64,000 bases of DNA from an uncultured Clostridia bacterium (GCA_964628035.1 CAZVPI010000008.1:29437-93436); one strand, 5' to 3'; counted from the stretch's first letter, positions 6,108-25,882 are shown. Translations and numbers: made by a program. The notes: generated by a model from the sequence alone, not told the origin.

Positions 6108-6349
6108 GAACTCAGTGACGAGAGGCGCGCTTCGCGCGCAGGGTAAAAGGCAAAAGTACAGAGGCGCAAGCAGGGACGGCGTCACGGAGTGACGACCGCC
6201 AGAGGCAGCGAAGGAGCGACTCCTGATGATGAGAGGGACAACTCGGCTGACGTGAAAAAAGGAGCACACTGGACGAAGGAGAAGAAATAGCTTGACCTAT
6301 TGCCACTTCTCTTCCCTCCTCACCCGTCACTTGTCACTTGTCACTGATC
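6108..6349. mobile_element. MITE/REP-like element, family 1 (terminal inverted repeats containing GTGACAAGTGAC), copy 1
   Basis: Left end GAACTCAGTGACGAG. Right end CGTCACTTGTCACTTGTCACTGATC is its inverted complement. The internal block GAGGCGCGCTTCGCGC...AAAAGGCAAAAGTACA is shared with the copy at 21029. Confidence 0.6.
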
Positions 6350-7026
6350 TCTTCTAATTGTCCGCCATGGAGCAGGTATCTCCTGTCCGTGAGCCGGGCC
6401 AGCTGCGGGTTGTGGGTGGCGACGACGGCGCTGAGGCCGCGGTCGGCGATCAGCCGCCGCAGCAGGGCGAAGACCGCCTCGCCGGTCTTCCAGTCGAGGC
6501 TTCCGGTCGGCTCGTCGGCCAGCAGCAGGCGCGGCCCGTTGAGCAGGCTGCGGGCGATGGCCGCCCGCTGCCTTTCCCCGCCCGAAAGTTGGTGGGGCAT
6601 GGCATCGAGCCGGTCGCCCAGGCCCACCTCGGCCAGCAGCGCCGAGGCCCGCTCCAGGGCCTGGCGCTTGCGGAAAGCGCGCACCAGCCCCGGTGCGGCT
6701 ACGTTCTCCCGCACCGTCAGCTCGGGCATCAGGTAATGGAACTGGAAGACGAAGCCGATGTCGCGGTTGCGGTAGTCGGCGAGCCGCCGGCGGCCGAAGG
6801 CGGCGATCTCCTCGCCGTCGAAGCGGATGCTCCCCCCGTCGGGACGGTCGAGCGAACCGAGCAGGTGCAGCAGCGTGCTCTTGCCCGAGCCCGAGGCGCC
6901 GGTGACCGACACGACGCTCCCCCGCGCCAGCTCCAGGGACAGGCCGTTCAAAATGACCAGCCGCTCGCGGTTCGGCTGGACAAAACTCTTGCGGATCTCC
7001 CTTGCCTCAAGGATCGGGTCGGACAT
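6334..7026 (-). CDS. ABC transporter ATP-binding protein (LolD/MacB/FtsE-like)
   Basis: Walker A GASGSGKST, signature LSGGERQR, Walker B LLLADEPT. 230 aa. Confidence 0.85.
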   Translation of the reverse strand: MSDPILEAREIRKSFVQPNRERLVILNGLSLELARGSVVSVTGASGSGKSTLLHLLGSLDRPDGGSIRFDGEEIAAFGRRRLADYRNRDIGFVFQFHYLMPELTVRENVAAPGLVRAFRKRQALERASALLAEVGLGDRLDAMPHQLSGGERQRAAIARSLLNGPRLLLADEPTGSLDWKTGEAVFALLRRLIADRGLSAVVATHNPQLARLTDRRYLLHGGQLEEISDK

Positions 7027-7038
7027 GCGCTTCTCCTT

Positions 7039-7521
7039 TCAGCCCTCGCCGGGGCGGGGCGCCGCGTCCGGCAGGACCGCGATGACGGCCTTGAGCCGGG
7101 GCAGCCAGTAGTCGTTCAGGATTTCCACGCGCACCCAGCCGCCGGAACTGGGGGCGTGCACGAAGCTTCCCTGCCCCAGGAAAATGGCCGTATGCCAGGA
7201 CTTTTTCAGGCGGAAGGCCAGGATGTCGCCCGGCTGGGCCTGGTGCAGGCGCACCGCCCGGCCGAGGCGCGATTGCTCGCGGGCGCTGCGCGGCAGGCGG
7301 ATGCCGAAGCAGTCGTAGACGTACGCCACCAGCCCGCTGCAGTCGAAGCCGTCGATGTCGCCTCCTCCATACACATAGGGCAGGCCGGCCAGGCTCGCGG
7401 CCAGCAGCGCCACCCGGCCGCGCAGCGCCGGGCGGCCGGGCGGCTCGGTGCGCACGGCGCAGGAGGCGGCGGCCAGCAGCGCCAGGGCTGCCAGGGGTCG
7501 GGCGAGTCGGAGGGGGATCAT
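7039..7521 (-). CDS. NlpC/P60 (C40) family peptidoglycan endopeptidase lipoprotein
   Basis: Signal/lipobox-like N-terminus (LLAAASCA), catalytic DCSGLVAYVY, and a downstream His (HTAIFLG). Confidence 0.8.
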   Translation of the reverse strand: MIPLRLARPLAALALLAAASCAVRTEPPGRPALRGRVALLAASLAGLPYVYGGGDIDGFDCSGLVAYVYDCFGIRLPRSAREQSRLGRAVRLHQAQPGDILAFRLKKSWHTAIFLGQGSFVHAPSSGGWVRVEILNDYWLPRLKAVIAVLPDAAPRPGEG

Positions 7522-7552
7522 CTGCGCTGCGTCCTTGCCGGGGCATGGGAGA

Positions 7553-7634
7553 TGCGAAAGGGGGGACTCGAACCCCCAGGCCTTGCGGCATCAGATCCTA
7601 AGTCTGACGTGTCTGCCAATTCCACCACTTTCGC
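7553..7634 (-). tRNA. tRNA-Leu, anticodon UAG, class II with long variable arm; CCA not encoded
   Basis: Reverse complement reads GCGAAAG-TG-GTGG-AATTGGCAGA-CACG-TCAGA-CTTAGGA-TCTGA-TGCCGCAAGGCCT-GGGGG-TTCGAGT-CCCCC-CTTTCGC-A. It has a perfect 7-bp acceptor stem, a 5-bp anticodon stem and a 5-bp T stem. GTTCGAGTC is the T loop. Anticodon TAG. Confidence 0.85.
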
Positions 7635-7752
7635 GGCCGCCCGGGGCGAAAATACCACGGGCGGCGGCGGTTGTCAAATCATTCGCCAAGGGTTTGACAT
7701 CGTGGAATCCTTCTGCTATGGTGGAAAAAGGAAATCCGTTCGGGAGGTTGCG

Positions 7753-8598
7753 ATGCCAAGCAAAAACAAAAGACTTGTCCGCGCCGTTCCGGCGCTGCTC
7801 CTGTCTTTCGGGCTGCTCGCGCTGCTCTGGCAGGCGGGCTGCCGCATGGAGACCCGTGAAGTCGGCCGCACGGCCGGCAGGCTGGAACAGATCCGCAAGG
7901 CGGGAAAGATCGTCGTCGGCACCAGCGCCGATTACCCGCCCTACGAATTCCGCCTCCTGCCCGATCTGGACCAGGAGATGGTGGGCATCGACATCGACAT
8001 CGCCGAGGCCATCGCCGCCAACCTAAGCGTCAGGCTGGAGCTCCGCGACATCGTGTTCAGCCGCCTGTTCGACGAGCTGGCGGCTGGGAACATCGACCTG
8101 GCCCTGGCCGGGCTGGCGCCGACCGAGAACCGCAAACGCGTAGCCGACTTCTCCATCCCCTACTACAAGGCGATGCAGAACATGCTGATCCGCGCCGAGG
8201 ACAAGGAGCGCATCCAACTGGTCGAGGACCTGCGCGGCAAGGTGGTGGGCACGCAGCGCGGATCGATCCAGGAGGACCTGGCCCGCAACCTGCTCAACGG
8301 CGCCGCCTTCTTCCTGCACGAGGAGATCGACGAGCTGATCGGCGCCCTGCTGCGCAAGGAGATCGACGCCATCATCCTGGAGAGGCCCGTGGCCGAGACC
8401 TACGCCGCCCGCGCCCCCGGATTCCTGCTGAACCTCGAATGCGACGCCGAAGGCCAGCACCTGGAATCGGCGGCGGCGGTGCGCAAGGGCGACGCGGAGC
8501 TCCTGGAGCGGGTCAACCAGGTCCTGAAGCAGTTGATCGCCGAGAACAAGATCACCGAATCGGCGGAAGCCGCCAAGCTATTGGCGAACAAGATTTAG
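7753..8598 (+). CDS. Amino-acid ABC transporter substrate-binding protein (family 3 SBP), no adjacent permease or ATPase
   Basis: GGAGG RBS 8 nt upstream of the ATG. Signal peptide MPSKNKRLVRAVPALLLSFGLLALL. Type-3 SBP layout with VVGTSADYPPYEF ... DLALAGL. Confidence 0.8.
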   Translation: MPSKNKRLVRAVPALLLSFGLLALLWQAGCRMETREVGRTAGRLEQIRKAGKIVVGTSADYPPYEFRLLPDLDQEMVGIDIDIAEAIAANLSVRLELRDIVFSRLFDELAAGNIDLALAGLAPTENRKRVADFSIPYYKAMQNMLIRAEDKERIQLVEDLRGKVVGTQRGSIQEDLARNLLNGAAFFLHEEIDELIGALLRKEIDAIILERPVAETYAARAPGFLLNLECDAEGQHLESAAAVRKGDAELLERVNQVLKQLIAENKITESAEAAKLLANKI

Positions 8599-8635
8599 CC
8601 GTTACTGTGATAGCGGTCGCAGCAGCCAAGGGCGA

Positions 8636-8760
8636 ACACCAGTGATGCGTGATGAGAAAAGCCAAGAACGAGCATACGTGATAGGCATTGAGAAAAGCCG
8701 AGAACAAGCTTTCGTGATCCGGAAGAGCCAAGACTGAGCGAGAACTCGGCGCAAGGAGCA
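8636..8760. repeat. Purine-rich degenerate tandem repeat (GTGATGAGAAAAGCCAAGAAC...); a related copy is at 62283-62320
   Basis: Three imperfect units of about 30 bp begin CGTGAT and carry AAAAGCC(A/G)AGAAC. 62290-62316 matches the same motif. Confidence 0.5.
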
Positions 8761-8799
8761 GGGCGGAGAACGCGGGGAAAGAAAGATGCATGCTCGCTT

Positions 8800-8935
8800 C
8801 ACAGTTGCCTTTTGCCCTTCGCCTTTTGCCTTGAGCCATCGTTCAGGTCAAGCGCAAAATGACTATTCAGCGCCTTTTCTTCAATTTTTGTCTTTTGCCT
8901 TTTCCCTTTCACCTTGTAAGCGCCTTGGTTTGGGT
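8800..8935. repeat. GCCTTTTGCC direct-repeat element (also at 49253-49316 and 62440-62475)
   Basis: TTGCCTTTTGCCCTTCGCCTTTTGCCTTG then GTCTTTTGCCTTTTCCCTTTCACCTTG. The complement motif GGCAAAAGGC occurs inside the family-1 elements. Confidence 0.45.
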
Positions 8936-8991
8936 CATGGGAATTTGTCCGCGGCTTGCCGCTTGCCGTTTCCGACGCTGACACGAACCCC

Positions 8992-10947
8992 ATGATACGC
9001 CTGCAGGACGTCCGGCTCGCCTATCGCGACAAGCCCATCTTCGCCGGGATCAGCTGGCTGATCTCCGACCGCAGCCGCGTCGGCCTGGTGGGCGACAACG
9101 GCGTCGGCAAGACCACCCTGCTGCGCGCCATCCAGGGCTCCGTGGCCCTGGACGGCGGGTCGATCGAAGTCTCGCGCTCGCAGCGCATCGGCTACCTGCC
9201 CCAGGACCTGGTCGAGCTGGAGCCGCTGCCGCTCATGGACACCCTGAAACGGCGCAGCGGCCACGAGGCGATGGAGCGGGCCGTGCAGGCCAGCCAGGAG
9301 CGCATCGCCGCGGGCGACCACGGCCGCGAGGGGTTCGCCTCGCTGCTCGACTGCTTCGACGCCGCCTCCGAGGCCTTTCTCCTGCGCGACGGCTATGGGT
9401 TCGAGGCCCGCGCCCGGCGCATCCTCAAGGGGCTGGGTTTCGCACCCGGCGACGAGGCGCGAAACTGCCGCGACTTCTCCGGCGGCTGGAAGATGCGCAT
9501 CCTGCTGGCCGTGCTCCTCCTCTCCGACCCGGAGATCATGCTGCTTGACGAGCCCACCAACCACCTGGACACCGACAGCATGGAATGGCTGGAAAGCTAC
9601 CTGCGGGGCTATGAGGGGACCCTGCTGGCCGTCTCCCACGACCACATGTTCCTCGACAAGATGGTGGGACAGGTCGCCGAGCTCGACCGCGGCCGTCTCA
9701 CCCTCTACAAGGGAGATTACAGTTATTATCTAAGGGAGAAGGAGCGCCGGGCGGCGGCGCTGGCCAAGAAGCGCGAGCTGCAGAGAGCCGAGATCAAGCG
9801 CATCCAGGCCTACATCGACCGCTTCCGCGCCAAGGCCAGCAAGGCCTCCGAAGTGCAGAGCCGCATCAAGCAGCTGGAGAAGTTCGAACTGCTGCCCGAG
9901 CAGCAGGGCGCCAAGGCCGTCCATTTCCGCTTCCCGGAGGGACGGCGCAGCGGCCGCGAGGTGCTGGCGGTCCGCGACCTGGCGAAGTCCTACGGCGGCC
10001 GCGAGGTCTTCGCCGGGGTGAACTTCACCCTGCAGCGCGGCGACAAGGCCGCCCTGCTGGGGGTCAACGGCGCAGGCAAGACGACCCTGGCCCGCATCCT
10101 GTCCGGGAGCGAGCCGCCCAGCCGCGGCGCGGTCGAATGGGGGTTCCAGGTGCAGACCGCCTTCTTCTCCCAGGAGAGCCAGGGCAACGTCGACTACGGG
10201 GGGACGGTATGGCAGGAGGCGCGGGGTGTCGAGGGCCGGGCCAGCGACCTGGAGGTGCGCAACCTGCTGGGCGCCTTCCTGTTTTCCGGCGACGACGTGA
10301 ACAAGCCGGTGGCGGTGCTCTCGGGCGGCGAGAAGAGCCGCCTGGCGCTGGTCAAGATCCTGCTCGGCGCCAGCAACTGCCTGATCCTGGACGAACCGAC
10401 CAACCACCTCGACCTCAAGACGAAGGAGATCTTCCAGAACGCGCTCCTGCATTATTCGGGGACGATCCTGCTGGTGTCGCACGACCGCCATTTCCTGGAC
10501 AACCTGGTGGGCCGGGTGCTGGAGCTTCGCGACGGCCGGCTGCACGAATACCTGGGCAACTATTCCGACTTCCTGCGCAGGCGCGAAGCCGAGCTGGCGG
10601 CCGAGGCGAGCGGGCAGTCCGCGCCGGCCCCCGTCCGCCAGGAGGAGCCGCGCAGAAGCGGGCGCACGCGCGAGGAGCGGCGGCTCGAGGCCGAGGAACG
10701 CAACCGCCTAGGCCGCGCCCGCCGCGAGCTGGCCGGGAAGGTCCAGGCGCTGGAGGCCGAGATCGGCGCGCTGGAAGAGGTCAAGAGCCGGAACCACAGG
10801 TGGTTGTGCGACCCCGATGTGCTCCGCGACTCGCCGCGCGTCCAGGAGCTCATGAAGGAGCTCAGCGCCGCCGAGACAAGGCTGAAGAAGCGTCTGCCCG
10901 AGTGGGAGAAGCTCATGGCTCAGCTCGAAGAGCTGAACGCGAACTGA
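8992..10947 (+). CDS. ABC-F family ATPase (two tandem ABC domains, Uup/EttA/YheS-like) with C-terminal coiled coil
   Basis: Two Walker A sites (GDNGVGKTT, GVNGAGKTT) and two signatures (FSGGWKMR, LSGGEKSR). No TM domain. Arg/Glu-rich coiled-coil tail. The ATG at 8992 gives MIRLQDVRLAY; the track ORF started at an upstream TTG. Confidence 0.85.
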   Translation: MIRLQDVRLAYRDKPIFAGISWLISDRSRVGLVGDNGVGKTTLLRAIQGSVALDGGSIEVSRSQRIGYLPQDLVELEPLPLMDTLKRRSGHEAMERAVQASQERIAAGDHGREGFASLLDCFDAASEAFLLRDGYGFEARARRILKGLGFAPGDEARNCRDFSGGWKMRILLAVLLLSDPEIMLLDEPTNHLDTDSMEWLESYLRGYEGTLLAVSHDHMFLDKMVGQVAELDRGRLTLYKGDYSYYLREKERRAAALAKKRELQRAEIKRIQAYIDRFRAKASKASEVQSRIKQLEKFELLPEQQGAKAVHFRFPEGRRSGREVLAVRDLAKSYGGREVFAGVNFTLQRGDKAALLGVNGAGKTTLARILSGSEPPSRGAVEWGFQVQTAFFSQESQGNVDYGGTVWQEARGVEGRASDLEVRNLLGAFLFSGDDVNKPVAVLSGGEKSRLALVKILLGASNCLILDEPTNHLDLKTKEIFQNALLHYSGTILLVSHDRHFLDNLVGRVLELRDGRLHEYLGNYSDFLRRREAELAAEASGQSAPAPVRQEEPRRSGRTREERRLEAEERNRLGRARRELAGKVQALEAEIGALEEVKSRNHRWLCDPDVLRDSPRVQELMKELSAAETRLKKRLPEWEKLMAQLEELNAN

Positions 10948-11185
10948 GGGGTGGTGATCGTGGTGGTAACCGCAATCAATGGAACAACAAACCCGAGATG
11001 GCGCAGTTCCGAAATAGAGAAATCATGTTGCCAAGTGGCAGAGGGATGGAGTTGTAAAGCGGAATAAGCCCCATACAGTGCATTTTTTCCGACGTTACCC
11101 CTCTGCAACGTTGTCTCTCTATCACTTTTAAAAACCACTTGAGCGCCTTCTCCACCACAACCACCAGCACGATCACCGCCGCTCA
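10948..11185. mobile_element. MITE/REP-like element with GGTGGTGATCGTGGTGG-type inverted ends, directly after the ABC-F stop
   Basis: Left end GGGGTGGTGATCGTGGTGGTAACC. Right end CACCACAACCACCAGCACGATCACC is an imperfect inverted complement. About 238 bp, non-coding. Confidence 0.45.
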
Positions 11186-11221
11186 AAAGGTAAAAGTGAG
11201 AGGCCTTGGGCTATCCCGGAT

Positions 11222-11300
11222 CATGAATTGCGAATCACGAATCACGATAACTTGCCTATAGATCGTTCCCTTGCTGTTCCAATCACCCATCACCAATTCC
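11222..11300. repeat. GTGATTCG-motif repeat (family 4 relative)
   Basis: GAATCACGAATCACGATAAC ... GTTCCAATCACCCATCACCAATTCCTCATCAC. Same motif family as 35862-35960 and 46905-47031. Confidence 0.4.
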
Positions 11301-11386
11301 TCATCACAAGAATGGGTTCGTTCAGGGCCTGCTCCTACCACTATCGCCATCACTTTTTCTTGTGCTAAAATGCCCTGGGAGGCAAC

Positions 11387-12130: not shown

Positions 12131-12176
12131 CCGCGCCCCCCCTTGCAATCGCGCCGGTTTTTTGGTAGATTTTAAA

Positions 12177-13265
12177 ATGACAAACACATACGTCCTGGCA
12201 ATAAACCCCGGTTCCACATCGACCAAGATCGCCATCTTCAAGGGCGAGGAGAAGGTCCTGGGCCAGAACATCTCCCATTCCGCGGAGGAGCTGGCGCCGT
12301 TCCCGCGCATCATCGACCAGCACCGCTTCCGCGAGAAGGTGATCCTGGAGTTCCTGAAAAAGAACGCCTTCGACGTCCGCCAGCTGGCCGCCGTCGTCGG
12401 CCGCGGCGGGCTGCTGGGTCCGATGGCCTCCGGCACCTACCGGGTCAACGACGACATGATCGAGTTCCTGCGCACCAACAAGACCGAGCACGCCTCCAAC
12501 CTGGGGGCGCTGCTGGCCAGCGACATCGCCAGGGAGATCGGCGTCGAGGCCTACATCGTCGACCCGGTGACCGTCGACGAGATGACCGAACTGGCCCGGG
12601 TCACGGGCCGCCCCGAGATCCCGCGCATCAGCATCTTCCACGCCCTGAACCAGAAAGCCGCCGCCCGCCTGGCCGCGCGCCAGCTGGGCAAGCCCTATGA
12701 CGCCTGCCGCCTGATCGTCGCCCACCTGGGCGGCGGCATCTCGGTCGGCGCCCACATCGACGGCAAGGTCGTCGACGTCAACAACGCCCTGAACGGCGAC
12801 GGGCCCTTCGCCCCCGAACGGGCCGGGTCGCTGCCCAGCTGGAGCCTGATCGAACTGGCCACCTCGGGCCGCTACGACCTGGCGGCGCTCAAGAAGATGA
12901 TCACCGGCCAGGGCGGCATCGTCGCCCACCTGCAGGTCAACGACATGCGCAAGGTGGAGGAGATGGTCAAGGCCGGCGACGCCAAGGCCACGCTGGTCTT
13001 CGAGGCCATGGCCTACAACGTGGCCAAGGAGATCGGCGGGCTGGCCGCCGTGATGGAGGGGCGGATCGACGCCGTCGTCCTGACCGGGGGCATCGCCTAC
13101 GACACGCTCTTCGTCGAACTGGTCCGCCGCCGCGTCGGCTTCCTCGGCAAGCTGATCGTCCTGCCGGGCGAGGACGAGATGGCGGCCCTGGCCCAGGGCG
13201 GGCTGCGCGTTCTGCGGGGAGAGGAGAAGCCGAAACACTGGAAGAAAGCAGGAGGAAACGCATGA
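12177..13265 (+). CDS. buk: Butyrate kinase
   Basis: MTNTYVLAINPGSTSTKIAIF is the acetate/butyrate kinase N-terminal ATP-binding motif. VAHLGGGISV. About 360 aa. Confidence 0.88.
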   Translation: MTNTYVLAINPGSTSTKIAIFKGEEKVLGQNISHSAEELAPFPRIIDQHRFREKVILEFLKKNAFDVRQLAAVVGRGGLLGPMASGTYRVNDDMIEFLRTNKTEHASNLGALLASDIAREIGVEAYIVDPVTVDEMTELARVTGRPEIPRISIFHALNQKAAARLAARQLGKPYDACRLIVAHLGGGISVGAHIDGKVVDVNNALNGDGPFAPERAGSLPSWSLIELATSGRYDLAALKKMITGQGGIVAHLQVNDMRKVEEMVKAGDAKATLVFEAMAYNVAKEIGGLAAVMEGRIDAVVLTGGIAYDTLFVELVRRRVGFLGKLIVLPGEDEMAALAQGGLRVLRGEEKPKHWKKAGGNA

Positions 13266-14167
13266 AGCCGATGAGGAAGCTGAGCGAGATCGAGACGCTG
13301 GTCAAGTCCAAGAAGAACTTCCAGATGGCCGTGGCCTACGGCCAGGACGAGGACACGATCCTGGCGGTCAAGCGCGCCGTCGAGGAGAAGATCGTCGACG
13401 CCATCATGATCGGCGACGAGAAGGTGATCCACGAGCAGTGCGCCCGGCTGAAGGTCGATCCCGGCCTGTTCCAGATCCTGAACGAGCCCGACGAGAAAAA
13501 AAGCGGCGACAAGGCCGTGCGCCTGATCATCGACGGCAAGGCCCAGATCCTGATGAAGGGGCTGATCTCGACCCCCTATTACCTGAAGCCCATCCTGAAC
13601 AAGGAATACAACCTGGTCGGCAAGGACGGCGTCCTGTCGCACACCGCCATCCTGGAGGTGCCGACGTACGACAAGCTGCTGTTGGTCTCCGACGTGGCCA
13701 TGATCCCCTACCCCGACCTGAGCCAGAAGATGCAGATGATCCAGTACAACGTCAAGATCGCGGCCAAGCTCGGGATCGAGAAGCCCAAGGTGGCGCTGCT
13801 GACGGCCAACGAGAAGGTCTCCGACAAGATGCCCTGCACCATGGAGGCGGCGGTCCTCGCCAAGATGGCCGAGCGCAAGCAGATCAAGGGCGCCGTCGTC
13901 GACGGACCGCTGGCCCTGGACGTGGCCATCTCCAAGCACGCCCTCGAGGTGAAGGGGCTGACATCGCCGGTCGAGGGCTACGCCGACATCCTGATCATGC
14001 CCAACATCGAGGCGGGGAACATCTTCTACAAGGCGACGACCCTTTTGGCCAAGGGCAAGCTGGCCGCCGTGGTCACCGGCGCCCCCTTCCCGGCCATCCT
14101 CACCTCGCGCGCCGACGACGACGACAGCAAGTATTATTCAATAGTCCTGGCGGCAGCCTTGGTCTAG
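13262..14167 (+). CDS. ptb: Phosphate butyryltransferase / phosphotransacylase
   Basis: PTA_PTB fold: ...SHTAILEVP...DVAMIPYPD...VALLTANEKVSDKMP...IMPNIEAGNIFYK. Its ATG overlaps the buk stop (ATGA). Confidence 0.85.
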   Translation: MKPMRKLSEIETLVKSKKNFQMAVAYGQDEDTILAVKRAVEEKIVDAIMIGDEKVIHEQCARLKVDPGLFQILNEPDEKKSGDKAVRLIIDGKAQILMKGLISTPYYLKPILNKEYNLVGKDGVLSHTAILEVPTYDKLLLVSDVAMIPYPDLSQKMQMIQYNVKIAAKLGIEKPKVALLTANEKVSDKMPCTMEAAVLAKMAERKQIKGAVVDGPLALDVAISKHALEVKGLTSPVEGYADILIMPNIEAGNIFYKATTLLAKGKLAAVVTGAPFPAILTSRADDDDSKYYSIVLAAALV

Positions 14168-14393
14168 AACTCAGTGACGAGCGACCAGTGCCGAGTGACA
14201 AGAGAAGACTAAAATTCCAGATCATGAATCCCGAATTCCAAACAAATCCTCAGCGCTGGATTCGAATGTCCCAAACGAAAGCCTTTGCGCGTGTCAGAAC
14301 TCGGTACCAAGTGGCCGCAAAGAAATGGCCTCAGTGATTCGCTCTATTGCGGTTCCTTGTTACTGGTCACTCGTCACGGGTCACTGAGCTGTT
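14165..14393. mobile_element. MITE/REP-like element, family 1, copy 2
   Basis: The left end TAGAACTCAGTGACGAGCGACCAGTGCCGAGTGACAAG begins within the ptb stop. The right end CTTGTTACTGGTCACTCGTCACGGGTCACTGAGCTGTTC is its inverted complement and abuts the stop of the convergent gene at 14394. Confidence 0.6.
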
Positions 14394-15194: not shown

Positions 15195-15262
15195 GGTTTT
15201 TTCCTCCTGGGGTCTGGGAGCATTATATCTCAACGGCTCCAGAAATATCAATGCTCAAGTTT

Positions 15263-15484
15263 CTCGGCGTACGGCTTACGGCGTAAGGCGTACGGAAGAA
15301 ACAAAATCAACGCCCGCTGCCACCCCTACAACGATCACCACCGCTTAGAAATTGTTGAAGCTCATTGCTTGCTGTTGCTGACACCAACCCTAACACGGAA
15401 GCTGGTCTTCTTGCTTTTGCCGTTCGCCGTCAGCCGAGTCTGCCTTTCCTTCCGTACGCCGTATGCCCTACGCCGTACGCCGAG
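15263..15484. mobile_element. MITE/REP-like element, family 2 (CTCGGCGTACGG-type ends), copy A
   Basis: Left end CTCGGCGTACGGCTTACGGCGTAAGGCGTACGG. Right end CCGTACGCCGTATGCCCTACGCCGTACGCCGAG is its inverted complement. About 220 bp between a promoter region and the ALDH 3' end. Confidence 0.6.
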
Positions 15485-15487
15485 TCT

Positions 15488-16852: not shown

Positions 16853-16903
16853 GAGCCCTCCCGTATTGGACAAACTGACCCATTCTAAACCAATCCAAAA
16901 CTT

Positions 16904-16970
16904 TTCAGCAACTTGAAGGTACGACGGTCCATCGAGGTTCCACGTACCATGTACCACGTTCCACGTTAGC
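16904..16970 (+). repeat. Dispersed about 60-bp repeat, family B (TTCAGCAACTTGAAGGTACGACGGTCCATCGAGGTTCCACGTACCATGTACCACG), copy 1
   Basis: Near-identical copies at 23264-23314 and 44925-44976. Reverse-orientation copy at 29809-29874. Partial copies at 34790-34825 and 23446-23560. Confidence 0.65.
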
Positions 16971-17176: not shown

Positions 17177-17260
17177 CGCGCCTTTGACACATCGACCGTC
17201 CTTTGATATAAGGAAATTCCGCGAGCAAACGCTTCGATCACGGGCTTCACCGGAGGTTCT

Positions 17261-18658: not shown

Positions 18659-18872
18659 GAACGAGCTACAGTGAAGAGTAAAAAGCGAACAGTGTAAGAG
18701 TCGTGAAGAAACCAAGAGCAAGCAAACCGAAAAGCAAACAATGGACTATAGTGAAAAGGTCTAGAGAGAGACAAACGCAAGCACCGGTTCACACATTCAA
18801 CTTCAAGACGACGAATTGCTCTTTTTGTTTCACTTTTCACTTTTCACTTTTCACTTACAAGGAGGTTTTCGC

Positions 18873-21038
18873 ATGAAAAACATATTCCTCATCCTGCTGC
18901 TGCTGGGCCTGGCCGCCCTGCTGCCCGCCGAGGAAGGCATGTTCCCGCTGAGCGAGATCCACAAGCTCGACCTCAAGGCCCGCGGCTTCGAGCTGGCCCC
19001 GGCCGAGCTGTACAATCCCAGCGGCGTCAGCCTGGTCGACGGCATCATCAACCTGGGCGGCTGCACGGCCAGCTTCATCTCTCCCGAGGGGCTGATCCTG
19101 ACCAACTACCACTGCGCCTTCGGCGCCATCCAGGCGCTGACCACCCCCGAGAACGACTACCTGCGGGACGGCTTCACCGCCGCCACGGCCGCCGACGAGC
19201 TGCCCGCCCCCCGCTACACGGCGCGACTGATCGAGTCCTACCGCGACGTGTCGCGCGAGGTGCTCGCCGCGGTCAAGAAGCGGATGGACCACGCCCAGCG
19301 CAGCAAGGCCATCGAGGAGAAGATCAAGCGCATGGAGGTCGATGTGGAAAAGTCCCTGCCGGGCCGGCGCGCCGAGGTGGCCGAGATGTTCCGCGGCAAG
19401 ACCTACGTGCTGTTCGTCTACGCCAACATCAAGGACGTGCGCCTGGTCTACGCCCCGCCGCGGGCCATCGGCGAGTTCGGCGGCGAGGTGGACAACTGGA
19501 CCTGGCCGCGGCATACCGGCGATTTCGCCCTGATGCGCGCCTACGTCGCCCCCGACGGCTCGTTCGCCGACCATTCCCCGGCCAACGTCCCCTACCGCCC
19601 CAAGAAGCACTTCCAGGTGTCGGCGGCCGGGGTCGACGAGGGCGACTTCGTCTTCGCCCTGGGCTATCCCGGCAGCACCCACCGCCACAAGTCGTCGCAC
19701 TACCTGGCCTTCGAGGAGGAGGTGCGGCTCCCCTTCACCATCGAGCTGGGCCGCTGGATCATCGAGCTGAAGGAGACGATGAGCCAGGAGAGCCGCGCCA
19801 CGGCCATCAAGCTGGCCTCGTCGCTGCAGGGGCTCTGGAACGGCGTCAAGCGCAGCGAGGGGCAGCTGAAAGGGCTGCGCAACCTGGGGCTGGCCGTGCG
19901 CCGGCGCCGCCAGGAGGAGGAGTTGCAGACGTTCATCGCCGCCGACAAGGGGCGGCGCAAGAAATACGGCACCCTGTTCGCCCGCCTCGACAGCGCCTAC
20001 GCCGACATGCGCCGGCGCGCAACCCGCGACATGACCCTGGCCAACCTGGTGAGCGGAAGGGTCTCCACCCTGCTGGGGAACGCCTTCCGCATCTGCCTGG
20101 CCTCCTACGAGCGCGCCAAGCCCGACACCCAGCGCGAGGAGGCCTTCATGGACCGCAACTTCGAGCGCACCGAGCGCATGATGACCATGGCCCTGCGGGA
20201 TTACCATGAGCCGGCGGAACGGGCCGTCCTGCGCCATATGCTGGGCCGGGCCGCCGCCCTGCCGGCCAACGAGGCCGTGCCGGCGGTCCAGAGGATCGTC
20301 AACGGCGGCGAGCCCGGACAGGCCCTGGATGACTTCCTGGACAAGGCCCTGGCTGAAACGAAACTGAAGGACCCGGCCGTGGTCAGCGCCTGGCTGAAAA
20401 CGCCCCAGGCCGGGCTGAAGGCCCAGAAGGACCCGTTCCTGCGCCTGGCCTTCGACCTCTACCCCGATTACCTGGAGATGAAGGAGGCCGAAAAGCGCGA
20501 CAAGGGGATCCTGGACCCGCTGCTGGCCCAGCTGGTCGACGTCAAGAAGGAGTTCCAGGGGACCGATTTCATCCCCGACGCCAACTCCACCCTGCGCCTG
20601 ACCTACGGCCGCATCCGCCCCTATTCCCCGGCCGACGCCGTCGAGATGAGGCCCTTCACCACCCTGCGCGGCATCGTCGAGAAAACGGTCCTGCACAAGG
20701 GGTCCGAGGACTTCTCGGCGCCGCAGCGGCTGCTCGACCTGGCCGCCGCGGGTGATCACGGCGCCTACGCCCACCCGCGCCTGGGGGATGTCCCGGTGGC
20801 CATGCTCTACGACATGGACACCACCGGCGGCAACTCGGGCTCGCCGGTCTTCAACGCCCGCGGCGAGCTGATCGGCCTGAACTTCGACCGCGTCTACGAG
20901 GCGACGATCAACGACTTCGCCTGGGACCCGTCCTACAGCCGCTCCATCGGCGTCGACACCCGCTTCCTCCTCTGGTCGCTGGACAAGTTCAGCAAGGCCC
21001 GGAGACTGCTGGAGGAGATGGGGATAGGGACGAAGTGA
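18873..21038 (+). CDS. S46-family dipeptidyl-peptidase (DPP7/DPP11-like)
   Basis: AAGGAGG RBS. Signal peptide MKNIFLILLLLGLAALLPA. The chymotrypsin-fold triad is split across the protein: His in NYHCAFG, Asp in RHTGDFALMRAY, Ser in TTGGNSGSPVF. Confidence 0.88.
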   Translation: MKNIFLILLLLGLAALLPAEEGMFPLSEIHKLDLKARGFELAPAELYNPSGVSLVDGIINLGGCTASFISPEGLILTNYHCAFGAIQALTTPENDYLRDGFTAATAADELPAPRYTARLIESYRDVSREVLAAVKKRMDHAQRSKAIEEKIKRMEVDVEKSLPGRRAEVAEMFRGKTYVLFVYANIKDVRLVYAPPRAIGEFGGEVDNWTWPRHTGDFALMRAYVAPDGSFADHSPANVPYRPKKHFQVSAAGVDEGDFVFALGYPGSTHRHKSSHYLAFEEEVRLPFTIELGRWIIELKETMSQESRATAIKLASSLQGLWNGVKRSEGQLKGLRNLGLAVRRRRQEEELQTFIAADKGRRKKYGTLFARLDSAYADMRRRATRDMTLANLVSGRVSTLLGNAFRICLASYERAKPDTQREEAFMDRNFERTERMMTMALRDYHEPAERAVLRHMLGRAAALPANEAVPAVQRIVNGGEPGQALDDFLDKALAETKLKDPAVVSAWLKTPQAGLKAQKDPFLRLAFDLYPDYLEMKEAEKRDKGILDPLLAQLVDVKKEFQGTDFIPDANSTLRLTYGRIRPYSPADAVEMRPFTTLRGIVEKTVLHKGSEDFSAPQRLLDLAAAGDHGAYAHPRLGDVPVAMLYDMDTTGGNSGSPVFNARGELIGLNFDRVYEATINDFAWDPSYSRSIGVDTRFLLWSLDKFSKARRLLEEMGIGTK

Positions 21039-21272
21039 CGAGTGACGAGTGACAAGTGACGAGGCGCGCGCTTCGCGCACAAGGCAAAAGTACAAAGGCA
21101 AAGGGAAAGACAACGGCACAAGGGGAAGACGAACGGCCGCAGGATAAAGAATGAGTCATCAGGATGAGAAAGAAAGGAACTCATTCCAGAAAAGGAGATG
21201 CAATCGTTCGAACCTATCGCTGTTTTTCTTCTCTCGTCCCTTGTTACGTGTCACTTGTCACTGAGGTTCGCT
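21029..21272. mobile_element. MITE/REP-like element, family 1, copy 3
   Basis: The left end GACGAAGTGACGAGTGACGAGTGACAAGTGAC overlaps the S46 stop (ACG AAG TGA). The right end CTTGTTACGTGTCACTTGTCACTGAGGTTCG overlaps the GT2 stop (TAA on the minus strand). The internal GAGGCGCGCGCTTCGCGCACAAGGCAAAAGTACAAAGGCAAAG matches the copy at 6108. Confidence 0.65.
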
Positions 21273-22134
21273 GGTTCTTCTTCAGTAGCTCTAGGATCTG
21301 CTTTGCCGCGCTCCTTTCCTCGGCGTCCCTGCTGCGCAGCCCTTTCCAGCGGAACTTGAGCCAGAGGTAGAGTTTCAAGGCGCCGAGCTGCCATCCGGGC
21401 AGGTGCTTGCGGTACACGGTCAGCTGGCTGCGGCGGTACTCGACGGCCGTGCGCGCCGGCATCGAGCCGACGCTGGCGCCCCCCAGGTGGACCATGCGCG
21501 CCCCGGGGTAGAAATAAACCGCCCGCCCCTGGCTGCGCAACCGGGCGCACAGCTCGCTGTCGTCGAAGTAGAGGAAGATCTCCTCGTCGAAAACACGGCC
21601 GCCGGGGAAAAAGGCGGCGCGGGTGAGCAGGCAGCAGCCGCTGACCCAGCCCACCTGACGCGTCCGCAGGCGCTCCGGGCGCCGCCGCCTGGCCAGGGGC
21701 GCGGCCACGGCCTTCTGCCAGAACTCGGAAAAGAGCGACAAGGGGCGGCCGTACGACAGCTGCAGGCTGTGGTCGTCGTTCAGGACCAGCGGGCCCACGG
21801 CGCCTGCATCGTCCCGCTCCTCGGCAAAGGCGACCAGCCGGGCCAGCGTGTCGGGGAAGACGCGGGTGTCGCTGTTGAGAAAGAGCAGGAACTCGCCGCG
21901 GGCCACGGCGGCGCCGCGGTTGTTGCCGCGGGTGAAGCCCAGGTTTTCCGGATTGCGGACGACGCGGATGCGCTCCAGGAACGGGGCCAGCTTGGATTCG
22001 AACTCCGCGGCGGCGTTGTCGACGACGATGACCTCGAAGGGGAACGGGGCCTCGCTGGCCAGCAGCGCGGCCAGGGCCCGGCGCAGGACCTGCTCCTGCT
22101 CGCGGCTGACGACCAGGATGACCGAGAGCTTCAT
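21244..22134 (-). CDS. Family 2 glycosyltransferase
   Basis: MKLSVILVVSREQEQVLRRAL...VIVVDNAA...LNSD is a GT-A N-terminus with a DXD-like motif. 296 aa. Confidence 0.85.
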   Translation of the reverse strand: MKLSVILVVSREQEQVLRRALAALLASEAPFPFEVIVVDNAAAEFESKLAPFLERIRVVRNPENLGFTRGNNRGAAVARGEFLLFLNSDTRVFPDTLARLVAFAEERDDAGAVGPLVLNDDHSLQLSYGRPLSLFSEFWQKAVAAPLARRRRPERLRTRQVGWVSGCCLLTRAAFFPGGRVFDEEIFLYFDDSELCARLRSQGRAVYFYPGARMVHLGGASVGSMPARTAVEYRRSQLTVYRKHLPGWQLGALKLYLWLKFRWKGLRSRDAEERSAAKQILELLKKNQRTSVTSDT

Positions 22135-22149
22135 CGGCGCGCGGCCGGC

Positions 22150-23187
22150 CTATTCCAGAATGATCTTGCCGGCGTTGCCCGCGAGCCCGACCTCGAAGGC
22201 CTCACGGAAGCGGGCCATGGGGAAGCGGTGGGTGATCAGCGGCGCCAGATCGACCCTGCCCGAGACCAGCAGGGCGTCCATCTGGAACCAGGTGTCGTAC
22301 ATGCGCCGGCCGTTGATGCCCTGGACGGTCACCCCCGCGAAGATGACGTCCCTGGCCAGGTCCAGGGTCAGGGGCTTGGCCGGGATGCCCAGCAGCGAGT
22401 AGCGGCCGTTCTTGCGGATGGCGCGGAAGCCCTGGGCGATGGCCGCCGGGTGGCCCGACATCTCCAGCACCACGTCGACACCCTGGCCGCCGGTGAGGCC
22501 GCGCACGACCTCCTCCACGCTCTCGGCCACCGGGTCGATGACGCGGTCGGCGCCCATCTTCTTCGCCAGCTCGCGGCGGAAGGGCATCACCTCGCTCAGC
22601 AGGACCAGCGAGGCGCCGGCCGCCTTGCACACCGGGACGGCGGCGATGCCGATCGGCCCGCCGCCGAGCACCAGGAAGGACTTGCCCACGGTGGCGCCGG
22701 CCATGACCGTGTGCACGGCGTTGCCGAAGGGGTCGTAGACCGCCGCCCACTCGGGGTCGATCCCCTTGGGCACGCGCCACAGGTTGCTCTCGGGCACGGC
22801 GATGTAGTCGGCGAAGCTGCCGTCGCCGTCGACGCCGAGGATGACCACGTTCTCGCACAGGTGGGCGTTGCCCGTCCGGCACTGGAAGCACTGGTTGCAG
22901 ACGACGTGCATCTCGGCGGTGACCAGATCCCCCACCCGGTAGTGGCGCACGGAGGCGCCGGCCTCGACGATCTCGCCGTAGAACTCGTGCCCGGTCGTGA
23001 CCGGGGGCTTGATGCGGTTCTGCGACCACTCGTCCCACTTGTAGATGTGCAGGTCGGTGCCGCAGATGGCGCGCTTGATCACCCGCACCAGGACCTCGCC
23101 GCTCTGGATGGCGGGAATGGGTACCGTTTGCAGCTCCAGCCCCGGCCCGGCCTTCATCTTGCGCAACGCTTGCATCGTGCCTTTCAT
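22150..23187 (-). CDS. tdh: L-threonine 3-dehydrogenase (zinc-dependent MDR family)
   Basis: The N-terminus MKGTMQALRKMKAGPGLELQTVPIP is like Tdh. Zinc ligands in ICGTDLHIYKWDEW...GHEFYGE, structural-Zn Cys cluster CNQCFQC, Rossmann motif GGGPIG. Confidence 0.88.
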   Translation of the reverse strand: MKGTMQALRKMKAGPGLELQTVPIPAIQSGEVLVRVIKRAICGTDLHIYKWDEWSQNRIKPPVTTGHEFYGEIVEAGASVRHYRVGDLVTAEMHVVCNQCFQCRTGNAHLCENVVILGVDGDGSFADYIAVPESNLWRVPKGIDPEWAAVYDPFGNAVHTVMAGATVGKSFLVLGGGPIGIAAVPVCKAAGASLVLLSEVMPFRRELAKKMGADRVIDPVAESVEEVVRGLTGGQGVDVVLEMSGHPAAIAQGFRAIRKNGRYSLLGIPAKPLTLDLARDVIFAGVTVQGINGRRMYDTWFQMDALLVSGRVDLAPLITHRFPMARFREAFEVGLAGNAGKIILE

Positions 23188-23263
23188 CAGGGATTCTCCT
23201 TAGAGCGAAGGAGCCATTGTAGTACGAATGGCCAACTTAAGCAAGTGAAGGGAACCCGGACTA

Positions 23264-23314
23264 TTCAGCAACTTGAAGATACGACGGCCCATCAAGGTAC
23301 CACGTACCACGTAT
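23264..23314 (+). repeat. Family B dispersed repeat, copy 2
   Basis: TTCAGCAACTTGAAGATACGACGGCCCATCAAGGTACCACGTACCACGTATT. Confidence 0.6.
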
Positions 23315-23445
23315 TAAGTACAAAGTAAAAAAGCCCTTGGAATTCCTCAAGCTTAAAGCCGCTTACGTTATAAGCAGTAACGCAATCACCTATTTCTAAG
23401 GCTTGTACGTTCACAGGATTTTTCTGGCTTTAAACATGGTACATG

Positions 23446-23560
23446 GTACGTGGTACGTGGTACCTCGAAGGACCGGGAGGTTTTTGTTCTCGAGATGGTA
23501 TGTGGTACCTCGACGGACTGGAGGTATTCAGGTCTTGAGATGGGATGTGGCATGTGGTAC
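23446..23560 (-). repeat. Two partial tandem family B copies in reverse orientation
   Basis: GTACGTGGTACCTCGAAGGACCGGGAGG and TATGTGGTACCTCGACGGACTGGAGGT are the reverse complement of the CCTCGATGGACCGTCGTACC core. Confidence 0.45.
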
Positions 23561-23588
23561 GTTCTGGCTCTCATGGTATAATGCCCGC

Positions 23589-24398
23589 ATGAAAAAAAGC
23601 ACTGTGCTGTGGCTGCTGGCCCTGCTGCCGACCCTGCTGCTGGCCGTCTACCAGCGCCTGAGCGGCCCCACCCACCCGCTGAAGGCGACCGAGGGCGACG
23701 GCGCCGCCCGCGTCACCTACAGGCTCTACCGCAGCTGGACGAGCCACCGGCCGCTGCCGGTGCGCGTCGCCGGCGACGGCATCGTCTCCATGCGCCTGCT
23801 TCACCGCCGCTTCCCCCCGGTCGAGGGCGAGGAGTGGGCGCCGGTGACGATGAAGACCCGCGGCGGAGCCTTCGTCGGCGACGTGCCGGGACAGCCGGCC
23901 GCCGGCAAGGTGGCCTACCGCATCGAGGCCGTAACCCCCTCCGGCAGCTTGTGGCTGAACGGCGGCGAGCCGGTCGTCGCCCGCTTCAAGGACGAGGTCC
24001 CGGCCTGGGCCCTGGTCCCGCACGTGCTGTTCATGTTCGCCGGGCTGCTCCTGGCTTTCCGCACCGGGCTGGGTGCGCTGCTGCGCCTGGAGGGCTGGGA
24101 GAGGCTCCTGCCCTGGACCGTGATCGTCACCGCCGCCGGAGGCCTGTTCCTCGGGCCGCTGGTGCAGAAGTACGCCTTCGGGTCTTTCTGGACCGGCTTC
24201 CCGCTCGGCCGCGACCTGACCGACACCAAGACCCTGTTCGTCATCCTGATCTGGCTGGCGGCGCTGTTCCTGAAGAGGAAGAGCCGCTGGTGGACGGTGG
24301 CGGCCATGCTGCTGATGATCGGCGTCTACATGATCCCCCATTCCATCTTGGGATCGGAGCTTGACTACAAGACGGGAAAGATCGTCACAGCGAAATAG
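23589..24398 (+). CDS. Hypothetical integral membrane protein
   Basis: Start MKKSTVLWLLALLPTLLLAVY, with several further TM segments. The upstream part of the track ORF (23403-23588) is repeat DNA, not coding. Confidence 0.6.
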   Translation: MKKSTVLWLLALLPTLLLAVYQRLSGPTHPLKATEGDGAARVTYRLYRSWTSHRPLPVRVAGDGIVSMRLLHRRFPPVEGEEWAPVTMKTRGGAFVGDVPGQPAAGKVAYRIEAVTPSGSLWLNGGEPVVARFKDEVPAWALVPHVLFMFAGLLLAFRTGLGALLRLEGWERLLPWTVIVTAAGGLFLGPLVQKYAFGSFWTGFPLGRDLTDTKTLFVILIWLAALFLKRKSRWWTVAAMLLMIGVYMIPHSILGSELDYKTGKIVTAK

Positions 24399-24401
24399 AA
24401 A

Positions 24402-24642
24402 CTCGGCGTGGGGCGCAGGGCGTAGGGGGAAGAGGAAGAAAAAACTCGGCATAGGGCGTAGAGGAAGAAGAAGAAAAGACCTTGGCGAAGGGAACGGCAA
24501 CAATCGATCTGTAGCTTTTCTCTTGCGCCTGAAACTCACGCCTCATGCCGAGACCACCAATGCATTTCCCCTTGGTGAAATGAAAGGCAGAGACCGGTCT
24601 ATGGCTATTCCCTTACGCCTAATGCCTTCCGCCTTACGCCAA
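24402..24642. mobile_element. MITE/REP-like element, family 2, copy C (composite)
   Basis: Left ends AACTCGGCGTGGGGCGCAGGGCGTAGGGGG and AACTCGGCATAGGGCGTAGAGG. Right end CCCTTACGCCTAATGCCTTCCGCCTTACGCCAAG. Confidence 0.5.
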
Positions 24643-24644
24643 GA

Positions 24645-25652
24645 TCAAAGTCCCAAGCTATTGAATGTTTCTTCGGCTTCTAGAACGAGCCCTTTGACGA
24701 TCTCCTTGACCGGCTTGCTGTCCTGGATCAGCCCCACGCTCTGGCCGGCCATCAGCGAACCGTGCTCGACGTCGCCCTCCTGGACGGCGCGGCGCAGGGC
24801 CCCCACCCAGTACTTCTCCACCTCGTACTGGGCCTGGATGCGGGAGATCTCGCCGCGCTCCAGCTTCTGGATCAGCTCGAGCTGCAGGCGGCCGAACTCC
24901 TCGCTGCCCTTGTTCTTCAGGGCGCGGACGGCGACCACCGGCAGGGCCGAACTGTACTGCGGGGTGGCGAAGGCCTCGCGCGCCCGCGCCTTGCGGAAGC
25001 GCTCCTTGAAGGCCGGGTGGCAGGGGCTTTCCTCGGCCATGGCGAAGATCGTCCCCATCTGCACGCCGGCCGCCCCCATCAGCAGCAGGTGGGCGACCAT
25101 GCGCCCGGTGGCGATGCCGCCGGCGACGAAAACCGGCAGCTGCGGGTAATGGAACAGGACCTGCTGGATGAGGACGATGGTCGAGACATGGCCGATGTGG
25201 CCGCCGGCCTCGCTCCCCTCGAGGATCAGGGCGTCGGCGCCGTAGTCGATCATGCGCTCGGCGATCGAGTCGTTGGAGGCGAAGCACAGCACCCTGGCGC
25301 CGCTCTCCTTGGCGATGCGCACCTCTTCCTGGCGCGGGAAGCTGCCGGCGAAGACGATGTAGGGAACGCACCACGAGGCGACCTTTTCCAGGTGGGACAG
25401 GTAGTTGGGGGCGATGGTGATCAGGTTGACGGCGAAGCGGCAGCCGCAGGACTGCAGGGCGCGGACTTCCTTCTCCAGCACCTCGGTGGGCATGTTGCCG
25501 GCGGCCAGCACGCCGAAGGCGCCGGCGTCGGCCACGGCCTTGACCAGCCCCGAGGTGCTGATCCAGGTCATGGCGCCGGCGATCAAGGGATATTCGACGC
25601 CCAGGAAGTCGCGGCCTCTTTGCCAGTATTTTTCGTGCTTAGCGGCTATCAT
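24645..25652 (-). CDS. Nitronate monooxygenase / FabK-like FMN-dependent enoyl reductase (NPD family)
   Basis: Start MIAAKHEKYW. GVEYPLIAGAMTWIS and GAFGVLAAG motifs of the 2-nitropropane dioxygenase/FabK TIM-barrel family. Confidence 0.75.
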   Translation of the reverse strand: MIAAKHEKYWQRGRDFLGVEYPLIAGAMTWISTSGLVKAVADAGAFGVLAAGNMPTEVLEKEVRALQSCGCRFAVNLITIAPNYLSHLEKVASWCVPYIVFAGSFPRQEEVRIAKESGARVLCFASNDSIAERMIDYGADALILEGSEAGGHIGHVSTIVLIQQVLFHYPQLPVFVAGGIATGRMVAHLLLMGAAGVQMGTIFAMAEESPCHPAFKERFRKARAREAFATPQYSSALPVVAVRALKNKGSEEFGRLQLELIQKLERGEISRIQAQYEVEKYWVGALRRAVQEGDVEHGSLMAGQSVGLIQDSKPVKEIVKGLVLEAEETFNSLGL

Positions 25653-25677
25653 AATAGATATTTTAACATGACATGCA

Positions 25678-25882
25678 CTCGGTGACAAGTGGTGCGAAGC
25701 AGCACGGAGCGAACCTTGAGACAATGTCCCGAAGGCAATCAAACGAGATTCCAGGAAAAAACAATGCGGCCGCACAAAGACCTGAAGCAGGGCATGATGG
25801 TTATCAGGAAGATTGTTGAACTTGCAAAAGGATATCCTGCTGCAACTCGCTATCTTGCTGGCTCCTTGTCACTTGTCACTCG
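25678..25882. mobile_element. MITE/REP-like element, family 1, copy 4
   Basis: Left end CTCGGTGACAAGTGGTGCGAAGC. Right end CCTTGTCACTTGTCACTCGCCACC. It sits in the divergent region between the NMO and histidine-kinase genes. The internal 78-codon ORF is not credible. Confidence 0.5.

Follow-up and report, generated by a model that had tools for sequence, protein, structure and literature searches.

The 23S rRNA genes of Coxiella, Leptospira and Xanthomonas can carry intervening sequences (IVSs) with an open reading frame (ORF) for a protein of the S23p family, PF05635 (PMC4990558). In Coxiella, the IVS comprises 428 nt; RNase III cleaves its terminal stem of 28 bp, the loop holds a decaying S23p ORF, and the 5' cut site has tandem GACAGAT heptamers, the copy number of which varies among strains (PMC4990558). 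Heptamers are, moreover, the commonest long simple repeat in bacteria (cited in PMC4679880), the TAACTGA repeats having been described in the same work, and the Gmet_I classes of Geobacter metallireducens consist of 4-5 tandem units of 7-8 nt (GTTGCTYN, MTYCTGA) which are intergenic, mostly paired on opposite strands at variable distance, and have been read as binding sites of a global regulator (PMC2700814). Here, a 64-kb stretch of DNA (CAZVPI010000008.1:29437-93436, in the following the window) was analyzed, in which four intergenic loci with arms of GTGAC-type heptamers, named s1, s2, s3 and s4, on balance appear to belong, as gene-less and partly decayed copies, to a family of IVS-like cassettes with hairpin ends, having arms of 7-nt repeats and, in the complete members, a PF05635 gene between them.

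The genome is that of a member of Candidatus Aminicenantes (Acidobacteriota), the GlgC protein of which is 83-85% identical to that of the nearest species representatives, and the contig containing the window recurs unchanged in several metagenomes. L001-L005, contigs of the same species, match the window at 99.97-100% identity and were therefore not informative on differences in repeat number among strains. The relatives show good synteny, and orthologous spacers can be compared directly. From the sequence, a family of short elements with inverted ends resembling either miniature inverted-repeat transposable elements (MITEs) or repetitive extragenic palindromic (REP) elements had been predicted at four or more intergenic sites, and the four loci given were indeed found there:

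s1, 6108..6349, unstranded: gene-less GTGAC-armed locus in the spacer that separates the stop codon of lolD from the glgC promoter (minus-strand genes)
s1 left terminus, 6108-6122: GAACTCAGTGACGAG, a single unit
s1 right arm, 6319-6349: 3-4 units, overlapping the 3' end of lolD including its stop codon (6334-6348, ...ISDK*)
s2, 14165..14393, unstranded: gene-less GTGAC-armed locus between the convergent genes PTA_PTB (stop 14167) and DUF4412 (stop 14394)
s2 arms, 14170-14202 and 14356-14388: inverted-repeat z 8.9, period-7 0.62/0.69, fold z -2.3/-3.5
s3, 21029..21272, unstranded: gene-less GTGAC-armed locus in the spacer of two convergent genes, for peptidase S46 and a glycosyltransferase
s3 arms, 21031-21063 (4 units) and 21233-21266: inverted-repeat z 6.5, fold z -4.5/-3.1
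s4, 25678..25893, unstranded: gene-less GTGAC-armed locus between the divergent promoters of the NMO and PPDK-type genes
s4 arms, left 25678-25697 (decayed) and right 25863-25893

The sequence GTGACNNGTGAC occurs nine times exactly in the window, compared to an expectation of 0.05, and 15 times when allowing up to one mismatch (2.3 expected), with all matches confined to s1-s4. Polarity is constant, 5'-(GTGACNN)n ... (NNGTCAC)n-3', and what had been quoted as a single inverted terminal repeat is actually a tandem array of 7-nt units. Applying a stringent inverted-repeat test, in which z values of at least 4 were taken as significant, the predicted inverted termini are present in s2 and s3, whereas s1 and s4 each possess one decayed arm: the left arm of s1 amounts to one unit only (TCAGTGACGAG) and in s4 pairing is perfect over just 10 nt, so the inverted repeats of these two are by themselves not significant. 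In minimum-free-energy folds, however, pairing of the two ends encloses the complete spacer in all four cases (fold z -0.5 to -4.5). None of the four encodes a recognizable protein, as had been proposed, and scanning the window against Rfam at the gathering threshold yielded tRNA-Leu only and no rRNA.

Less of the predicted family likeness is left beyond the arms. An internal block common to two copies was corroborated by local alignment of s1 and s3, with scores of 65 at full length (null about 18) and 33 for the interiors (null 17 ± 2 to 2.5):

s1/s3 internal block, 6114..6165, plus strand: GAGGCGCGCTTCGCGC ... AAGGCAAAAGTACAGAGGC, with its partner at about 21054-21098
second s1/s3 block, about 6289-6318 and 21205-21240: beside the right arms

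Among the other fetched loci, this block was recovered from same-species contigs only. The remaining five pairs align like shuffled sequence, the interiors of s2 and s4 scoring 14-17 against any other copy (null 16), so that it is the heptamer ends that unite s1-s4. The lack of alignment past the short motif, which the original prediction had itself named as speaking against a family, hence largely applies, s1/s3 excepted.

A partner element with the same ends had been envisaged and was found in relatives; its gene, however, is not a transposase. At the ortholog of s3 in L086, a complete gene of the PF05635/TIGR02436 family is enclosed by GTGAC arms. This family, annotated as "23S rRNA intervening-sequence protein" (S23p), forms four-helix bundles and shows weak similarity to Avd, a protein of diversity-generating retroelements, and the cassette protein matches the crystallized pentamer XCC0516 from Xanthomonas (PDB 2gsc, E 2.5e-28). 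In L086 and in L091-L095, the gene lies between (GAACTCA)GTGACGAGTGACAAGTGAC... and ...GTCACTTGTCACTGAGTTC, and in L091-L095 it is bracketed by GAACTCAGTGACGAGTGACAAGTGACGAGTGACAAG ... TTGTCACTCGTCACTTGTCACTGAGTTC. The 15-mer GAACTCAGTGACGAG is identical in s1 and s2 of the window as well as in L091 and L092. L091 is syntenic with the window from 42.5 to 44.6 kb, and its GTGAC-armed PF05635 cassette occupies the position of the gene-less element 43967-44093, both sharing their boundaries (CTCRG on the left, CYRAG followed by CTTGAAAATCC on the right). Likewise, the spacer orthologous to 46907-47012 is occupied in L092 and L093 by a PF05635 cassette with GTGAC arms. By comparison with L086, L091 and L092/L093, three orthologous sites are therefore known at which a gene-bearing GTGAC cassette in a relative corresponds to a gene-less element in the window. 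The gene is thus found with heptamer arms, with the termini present in the window and at the same orthologous sites.

This association extends well beyond the relatives. A metagenome scan gave 80 loci coding for relatives of the PF05635 protein, which stem from many taxa since their GC content spans 0.30-0.65, and 67 of them had enough flanking sequence for analysis. Significant inverted repeats flank the gene in 59 of these 67, and an inverted-repeat score of 28 is reached by 88% of the PF05635 genes but only by 2% of 81 other ORFs from the same loci. In the arms of 58 distinct gene-bearing elements, self-match at lag 7 amounts to 0.595 versus about 0.27 at other lags, and the commonest pentamers (AGTGA, GTGAT, AGTAA, GTGAC and GTAAT) give the consensus unit AGTRAYN, to which GTGAC[A/G]A corresponds in s1-s4. 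Among 72,556 plasmids, homologues were found in 30 records, which belong almost without exception to heterocystous cyanobacteria (Nostoc 12, Calothrix 4, Anabaena, Trichormus). This anatomy is thus shared by cultured organisms, the arrays on either side of the gene being (GGTGACA)n and (CTGTCAC)n in Anabaena sp. 90, (GGGTGTA)n and (TACACCC)n in Calothrix NIES-22, and (GGAGGGC)n and (CTCCTGCC)n in Gemmatirosa. Two of the plasmid loci, L172 (Anabaena sp. 90 pANA02) and L176 (Pseudanabaena galeata pPg_01), have the four-helix-bundle gene together with its heptamer arrays inside a CRISPR-Cas locus, with cas6 on one side and cas4 on the other.

Within the window, a profile built from 71 cassette proteins detected the following traces of the gene:

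50444-50614, minus strand: PF05635 remnant with an in-frame stop (Pfam 39.9 bits versus a cutoff of 33.8; E 8e-8), within 50266-50722
61327..61482, minus strand: PF05635 remnant, C-terminal half (E 2.9e-7)
48885-49091, minus strand: doubtful third PF05635 remnant (E 0.28)

The spacer of the second remnant is flanked by short repeats of the CAGTGT/ACACTG type (about 61140-61175 and about 61590-61614). Hence, the PF05635 gene is decaying in place, with the remnants 50444-50614 and 61327-61482 lying within armed spacers.

Comparing orthologous sites among species with 73-85% protein identity reveals that the heptamers differ while the two arms co-vary. Upstream of glgC, the orthologs of s1 have (CGTGACG)n arms in L006 and L008, GTGATGC/GTGATTC in L017 and GTGATGA in L007, and in the low-GC L009 and L010 two GTGAC units plus a simple hairpin. 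The ortholog of s2 is built of CGTACGG in L086, within the same boundaries (GAACTCRG ... CYGAGC), of GTAATTC in L007 and L017, of ACGGTnT in L011 and of GTGACGC/GTAACGC in L009, with no array in L010. At this site, arm complementarity averages 31 within species versus 15.7 across species, and the arms accordingly change together between species. For s3, GTGAC was found in L086, GTGATTC in L087 and GTTCGAA in L088, with an empty 36-nt spacer in L090; for s4, GTGAC in L086, CGTAAGG in L088 and none in L089 and L090. In the spacer between the GATase and S46 genes (18670-18855), the window has the GTGAAAA flavor and L086 has GTGAC. Since L090, L010 and L089 have spacers of 36-150 nt without arms at the same sites, the armed elements are dispensable. 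The elements are therefore old and positionally stable, with their sequence turning over in concert. The s4 ortholog of L086 has four clean units per arm with further arrays nested inside. This stretch, 15040-15290 of L086, is a concentric palindrome of outer GTGAC arms, middle CGTACGG/ACGG arrays and inner GTGATTA arms, which might have formed by successive insertions into the loop or have grown from its center.

The GTGAC loci are not the only elements of this kind. Scanning the window for a period of 7 revealed 22 arrays, almost all intergenic, with units such as GTGACNN, CGTAAGG/CGTACGG, GTGATTC, AGTGAAA, ACGGTNN, GGTACGT, CAGTAGA and others, mostly as inverted pairs 40-450 nt apart. At least ten of the 22 intergenic regions contain a significant inverted repeat, nine of them heptameric and with at least six different heptamers, and about half of the long intergenic regions are bracketed by inverted heptamer arrays, so the originally proposed "unusually high density" of one element family is a misleading description. 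In intergenic DNA, self-match is 0.334 at lag 7, 0.307 at lag 14 and 0.288 at lag 21 compared to about 0.26 elsewhere; coding DNA shows a period of 3 alone. The sister elements are:

15263..15484, unstranded: CTCGG(CGTACGG)n ... (CCGTACG)nCCGAG; z 18.9
18670..18855, unstranded: AGTGAAA/TTTCACT units, spanning the distance between the preceding stop codon and the ribosome-binding site of S46; z 11.0
43967..44093, unstranded: CGTAAGG flavor, gene-less, about 125 nt; z 12.4
46907..47012, unstranded: GTGATTC flavor, gene-less
50266..50722, unstranded: ACGGTNN flavor with the decayed PF05635 gene inside; z 15.7

An inner motif beside the arms, AACMGCAATAG, was considered as a defining feature and rejected, being only weakly enriched (23 versus 14 expected).

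A second dispersed family combines a conserved block of 45-80 nt (TTCAGCAACTTGAAGGTACGACGGTCCATCGAGG) with subsequent GTACCAC/GTGGTAC heptamers and is present in the window in five copies of 74-88% identity (16887-16968, 23247-23328, 29807-29879 in reverse, 34786-34832 and 44908-44989). The block seems to contain a -35-like TTGCTG upstream of the leaderless start of an Aldedh gene. In L086, copies of this GGTAC family at 4109-4260, 6080-6230, about 12780-12900 and about 19040-19270 are near-identical, about 190 nt long and provided with inverted arms, and look like a recently multiplied MITE-like element; gene-less armed elements, accordingly, can multiply. Adjoining a GGTAC-family block, a G+C-rich 53-nt unit is tandemly repeated in about four copies of 93-98% identity (34831-35034), following a histidine-kinase gene. 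Regarding other taxa, inverted heptamer arrays also occur densely in further Acidobacteriota, namely L049 (a metagenome-assembled genome, 17 arrays in 21 kb), L084 (Pyrinomonadaceae) and L085 (Chloracidobacterium), as well as in some loci of Chloroflexi (L031, L039 and L071, Anaerolineae), and are essentially absent from the fetched loci of Treponema, Verrucomicrobiota and Latescibacterota. Some arm pairs of L049 have one systematic mismatch per unit (GGATTTG versus CGATTTG).

The cassettes fill the space from the upstream stop codon to the next promoter, where they end 0-16 nt from the -35 box, to the ribosome-binding site or to the convergent stop. Canonical terminators are missing from these gene ends. 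The arms also supply stop codons to the neighboring genes. In s3, the stops of both flanking genes (21036-21038 and 21244-21246) lie within the arms, the TGA of S46 in the first unit, and further genes stopping within arms are lolD (...ISDK* in GTGACAAGTGA) and the lolD genes of L007, L017 and L009. While the minus-strand arm at 6334-6348 of the window encodes ISDK*, LolD in relatives ends with ...EEI*, or with ...S* having the TGA inside a GTGA[CT] unit; as the lolD end is thus arm-encoded and differs among relatives, the arrays remodel the C-termini of genes. Since a 7-nt unit shifts the reading frame at every repeat, TGA or TAA falls in each of the three frames within three units, and such triple stops are found in 78 of 116 arms when read inwards versus 30 of 116 outwards. 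Stops are not a property of all heptamer flavors, as units of GTTCGAA and GGTAC fail in this respect. In s4, the last unit of the left arm provides the -35 hexamer of the minus-strand NMO promoter (TTGTCA-17-TAAAAT, 25688..25660). As a regular source of -35 boxes the arms were discarded, this being true for the left side of s4 only. Strong sigma-70-like promoters with -10 boxes ending 6-8 nt before the ATG precede glgC (6066-6094, minus strand), NMO (25660-25688, minus strand), the signal peptidase gene (about 44095-44130, plus strand) and DUF4412 (15222-15251, minus strand), this short distance suggesting leaderless or near-leaderless mRNAs of these four genes. The glgC promoter is kept in all relatives.

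Taken together, the elements share with the 23S rRNA IVSs the complementary termini closing the element as a long stem and, in complete copies, a PF05635 gene in the loop that is prone to decay. With the Coxiella IVS in particular, they have in common the tandem heptamers of variable number in the 5' arm, where GACAGAT contains GATGACA, close to AGTGACA. In contrast to the IVSs, however, the window elements are located between protein-coding genes and not in helix 9, 25 or 45 of 23S rRNA, s1-s4 are without an ORF, and the arms consist almost wholly of heptamer arrays in many flavors. Tandem, intergenic and stop-codon-rich 7-nt units are likewise typical of the short tandemly repeated repetitive (STRR) sequences of heterocystous cyanobacteria and of other bacterial heptamer repeats, and the plasmid homologues of PF05635 are nearly confined to STRR-bearing genera and flanked by such arrays. 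Differences are that Aminicenantes represent another phylum and that STRRs have been described as direct arrays; their unit sequences also differ from GTGACNN and the other units of the window. The Gmet_I sites of Geobacter resemble the window elements in being paired opposite-strand tandem heptamers in intergenic DNA, the unit sequences being different. Searching the literature for heptamers in Acidobacteria, heptamer-ended MITEs and PF05635 outside rRNA gave nothing relevant beyond the three works cited above (PMC4679880, PMC2700814, PMC4990558), and within this incomplete coverage no paper was found on heptamer-armed PF05635 cassettes outside rRNA, their inverted pairing or a link to STRRs.

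By analogy with the 23S rRNA IVSs, read-through of a neighboring gene would allow the arms of such a cassette to pair into a 20-35-bp stem that might be cut by RNase III, by which the insert would be excised or isolated from the flanking message. In addition, the inward TGA and TAA codons in three frames could stop entering ribosomes and, combined with cutting of the stem, would render the insert harmless. As unit number and order vary in close cassettes and flavors change within fixed boundaries, the arrays probably lengthen and shorten by 7-nt slippage and might be homogenized inside an arm as well as across arms, or be swapped among copies that recombine through their arrays.

Several observations weigh against deriving s1-s4 from such cassettes. 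No trace of PF05635 was detected in s1-s4 by profile search, which means that their tie to the cassette is made via termini and site orthology, and gene-bearing cassettes might have inserted into pre-existing armed sites rather than armed sites arising from decayed cassettes. In Pseudanabaena, the arrays flanking the gene, (GCTAAAA)n and (GCCAAAA)n, are direct and not inverted. Arms are only about 79% complementary, and between the close cassettes L094 and L095 the order of units diverges in a single arm, hence exact pairing is not tightly kept. Furthermore, the 58 gene-bearing elements show no RNA-specific signal, with 120 sense-strand mismatches of the G:U type versus 139 of the A:C type, and of 18 tandem spacers, just 8 have the more stable fold on the sense strand. 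Instead of forming a stem, the AGTRAY unit could be a protein-binding site, possibly for the cassette's own protein; it could also be important for its stop codons. Finally, no copying mechanism was found.

Alternatively, the spacers could be structures made by the host, with arrays arising by replication slippage and mirrored by template switching, the hairpin being kept as terminator, insulator or 3'-end protector and PF05635 lodging there secondarily. In line with this, the architecture is kept at orthologous sites while every base changes, the elements sit at unit boundaries as close as 0-16 nt to a -35 box, most armed spacers are without a trace of the gene, and loci of other Acidobacteriota and of some Anaerolineae that lack a PF05635 match commonly have heptamer arrays. 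Canonical Rho-independent terminators, moreover, are scarcer than expected by chance (6 found versus 14.8), and no terminator-like site, i.e., a short G+C-rich hairpin followed by a T run, was found in or beside s1-s4. On the other hand, the armless spacers of 36-150 nt in L090, L010 and L089 indicate that the structure is dispensable, and a bias towards folding of the sense strand was not observed. A generic need for hairpins also does not predict that the AGTRAY unit recurs across phyla around one gene, that identical 15-nt termini are present at unrelated sites and in another species, or that the GGTAC flavor is dispersed in near-identical copies. A host-made origin is thus considered unlikely.

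More improbable still is a classical DNA transposon derivative, a MITE with the arrays serving as subterminal transposase-binding repeats and a transposase provided in trans from elsewhere in the genome. Like MITEs, and also like REP doublets (REPINs), the elements are short, non-coding, intergenic and multi-copy with inverted ends, and several repeated units per end are known from Mu, Tn7 and Ac/Ds. The interior blocks common to s1 and s3, the near-identical copies of about 190 nt of the GGTAC flavor in L086, the empty s3 site in L090 and the nested arms of the s4 ortholog in L086, resembling insertion into an insertion, would fit as well. However, target-site duplications, which the MITE proposal called for, were detected neither at s1-s4 nor at the gene-bearing cassettes; instead, a weak palindrome outside s1-s4 runs on into the flanks and continues into the stop codons of the neighboring genes. 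No transposase, reverse transcriptase or integrase is encoded in the 64 kb, no transposase adjoins the arms in any of the 80 cassette loci, and PF05635 is the only gene found between such arms. Copies have heptamers alone in common, whereas occupancy is ancient and orthologous with flavors changing within fixed boundaries. As orthologous sites stay occupied while the sequence turns over in concert, the elements are not recent MITE insertions. Of the predicted non-autonomous relationship to a larger element, the shared inverted ends hence hold, while the assignment to MITEs or REP elements does not. Maintenance as REP/REPIN-like elements by a REP-associated tyrosine transposase (RAYT, a Y1 transposase) is very improbable, for although the elements are intergenic, palindromic, abundant and long-lived at orthologous sites, as is reported for REPINs, they consist of 7-nt tandem units and not of individually palindromic, imperfect 20-40-nt units with a GTAG head, have arm spacings of 40-500 nt and are associated with PF05635, no RAYT gene being present in the 64 kb.

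Two further features of the window were noted. Its exopolysaccharide cluster (Wzy_C, CpsB, Poly_export) contains paralogous Wzz/tyrosine-kinase-type genes at 50811-52884 and 56800-58879 with 75-80% DNA identity. The region 59000-64000 holds unannotated ORFs and has a much lower G+C content (about 0.50 versus 0.66), for which reason the last 5 kb may have been acquired.

Deriving s1-s4 from IVS-like cassettes with a PF05635 gene touches on two old puzzles, namely the occurrence of tandem 7-nt repeats between the genes of so many bacteria and the role of the S23p family (PF05635, TIGR02436) outside rRNA, which are joined by the association of 88% versus 2% in the control and for which a testable anatomy is now offered. 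Tentatively, heptamer-armed PF05635 cassettes could even constitute an unrecognized class of selfish cassettes spread across several phyla. The 23S rRNA IVSs might then be copies landed in rRNA and the bacterial heptamer arrays, such as cyanobacterial STRRs and the intergenic arrays of Acidobacteriota, largely their footprints, with the Avd-like protein involved in propagation or maintenance, maybe by reading AGTRAY or by partnering with a reverse transcriptase, the way Avd works in diversity-generating retroelements. In the Aminicenantes lineage studied here, cassette remains would account for a large part of the intergenic DNA (about 200-400 nt at each unit boundary). They supply stop codons, C-terminal residues (...SDK* of lolD) and even a -35 box, with consequences for gene calling and promoter prediction. 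Should the terminal stems indeed be RNase III sites, as in the Coxiella IVS, these elements would set the points of operon processing in an uncultured phylum.

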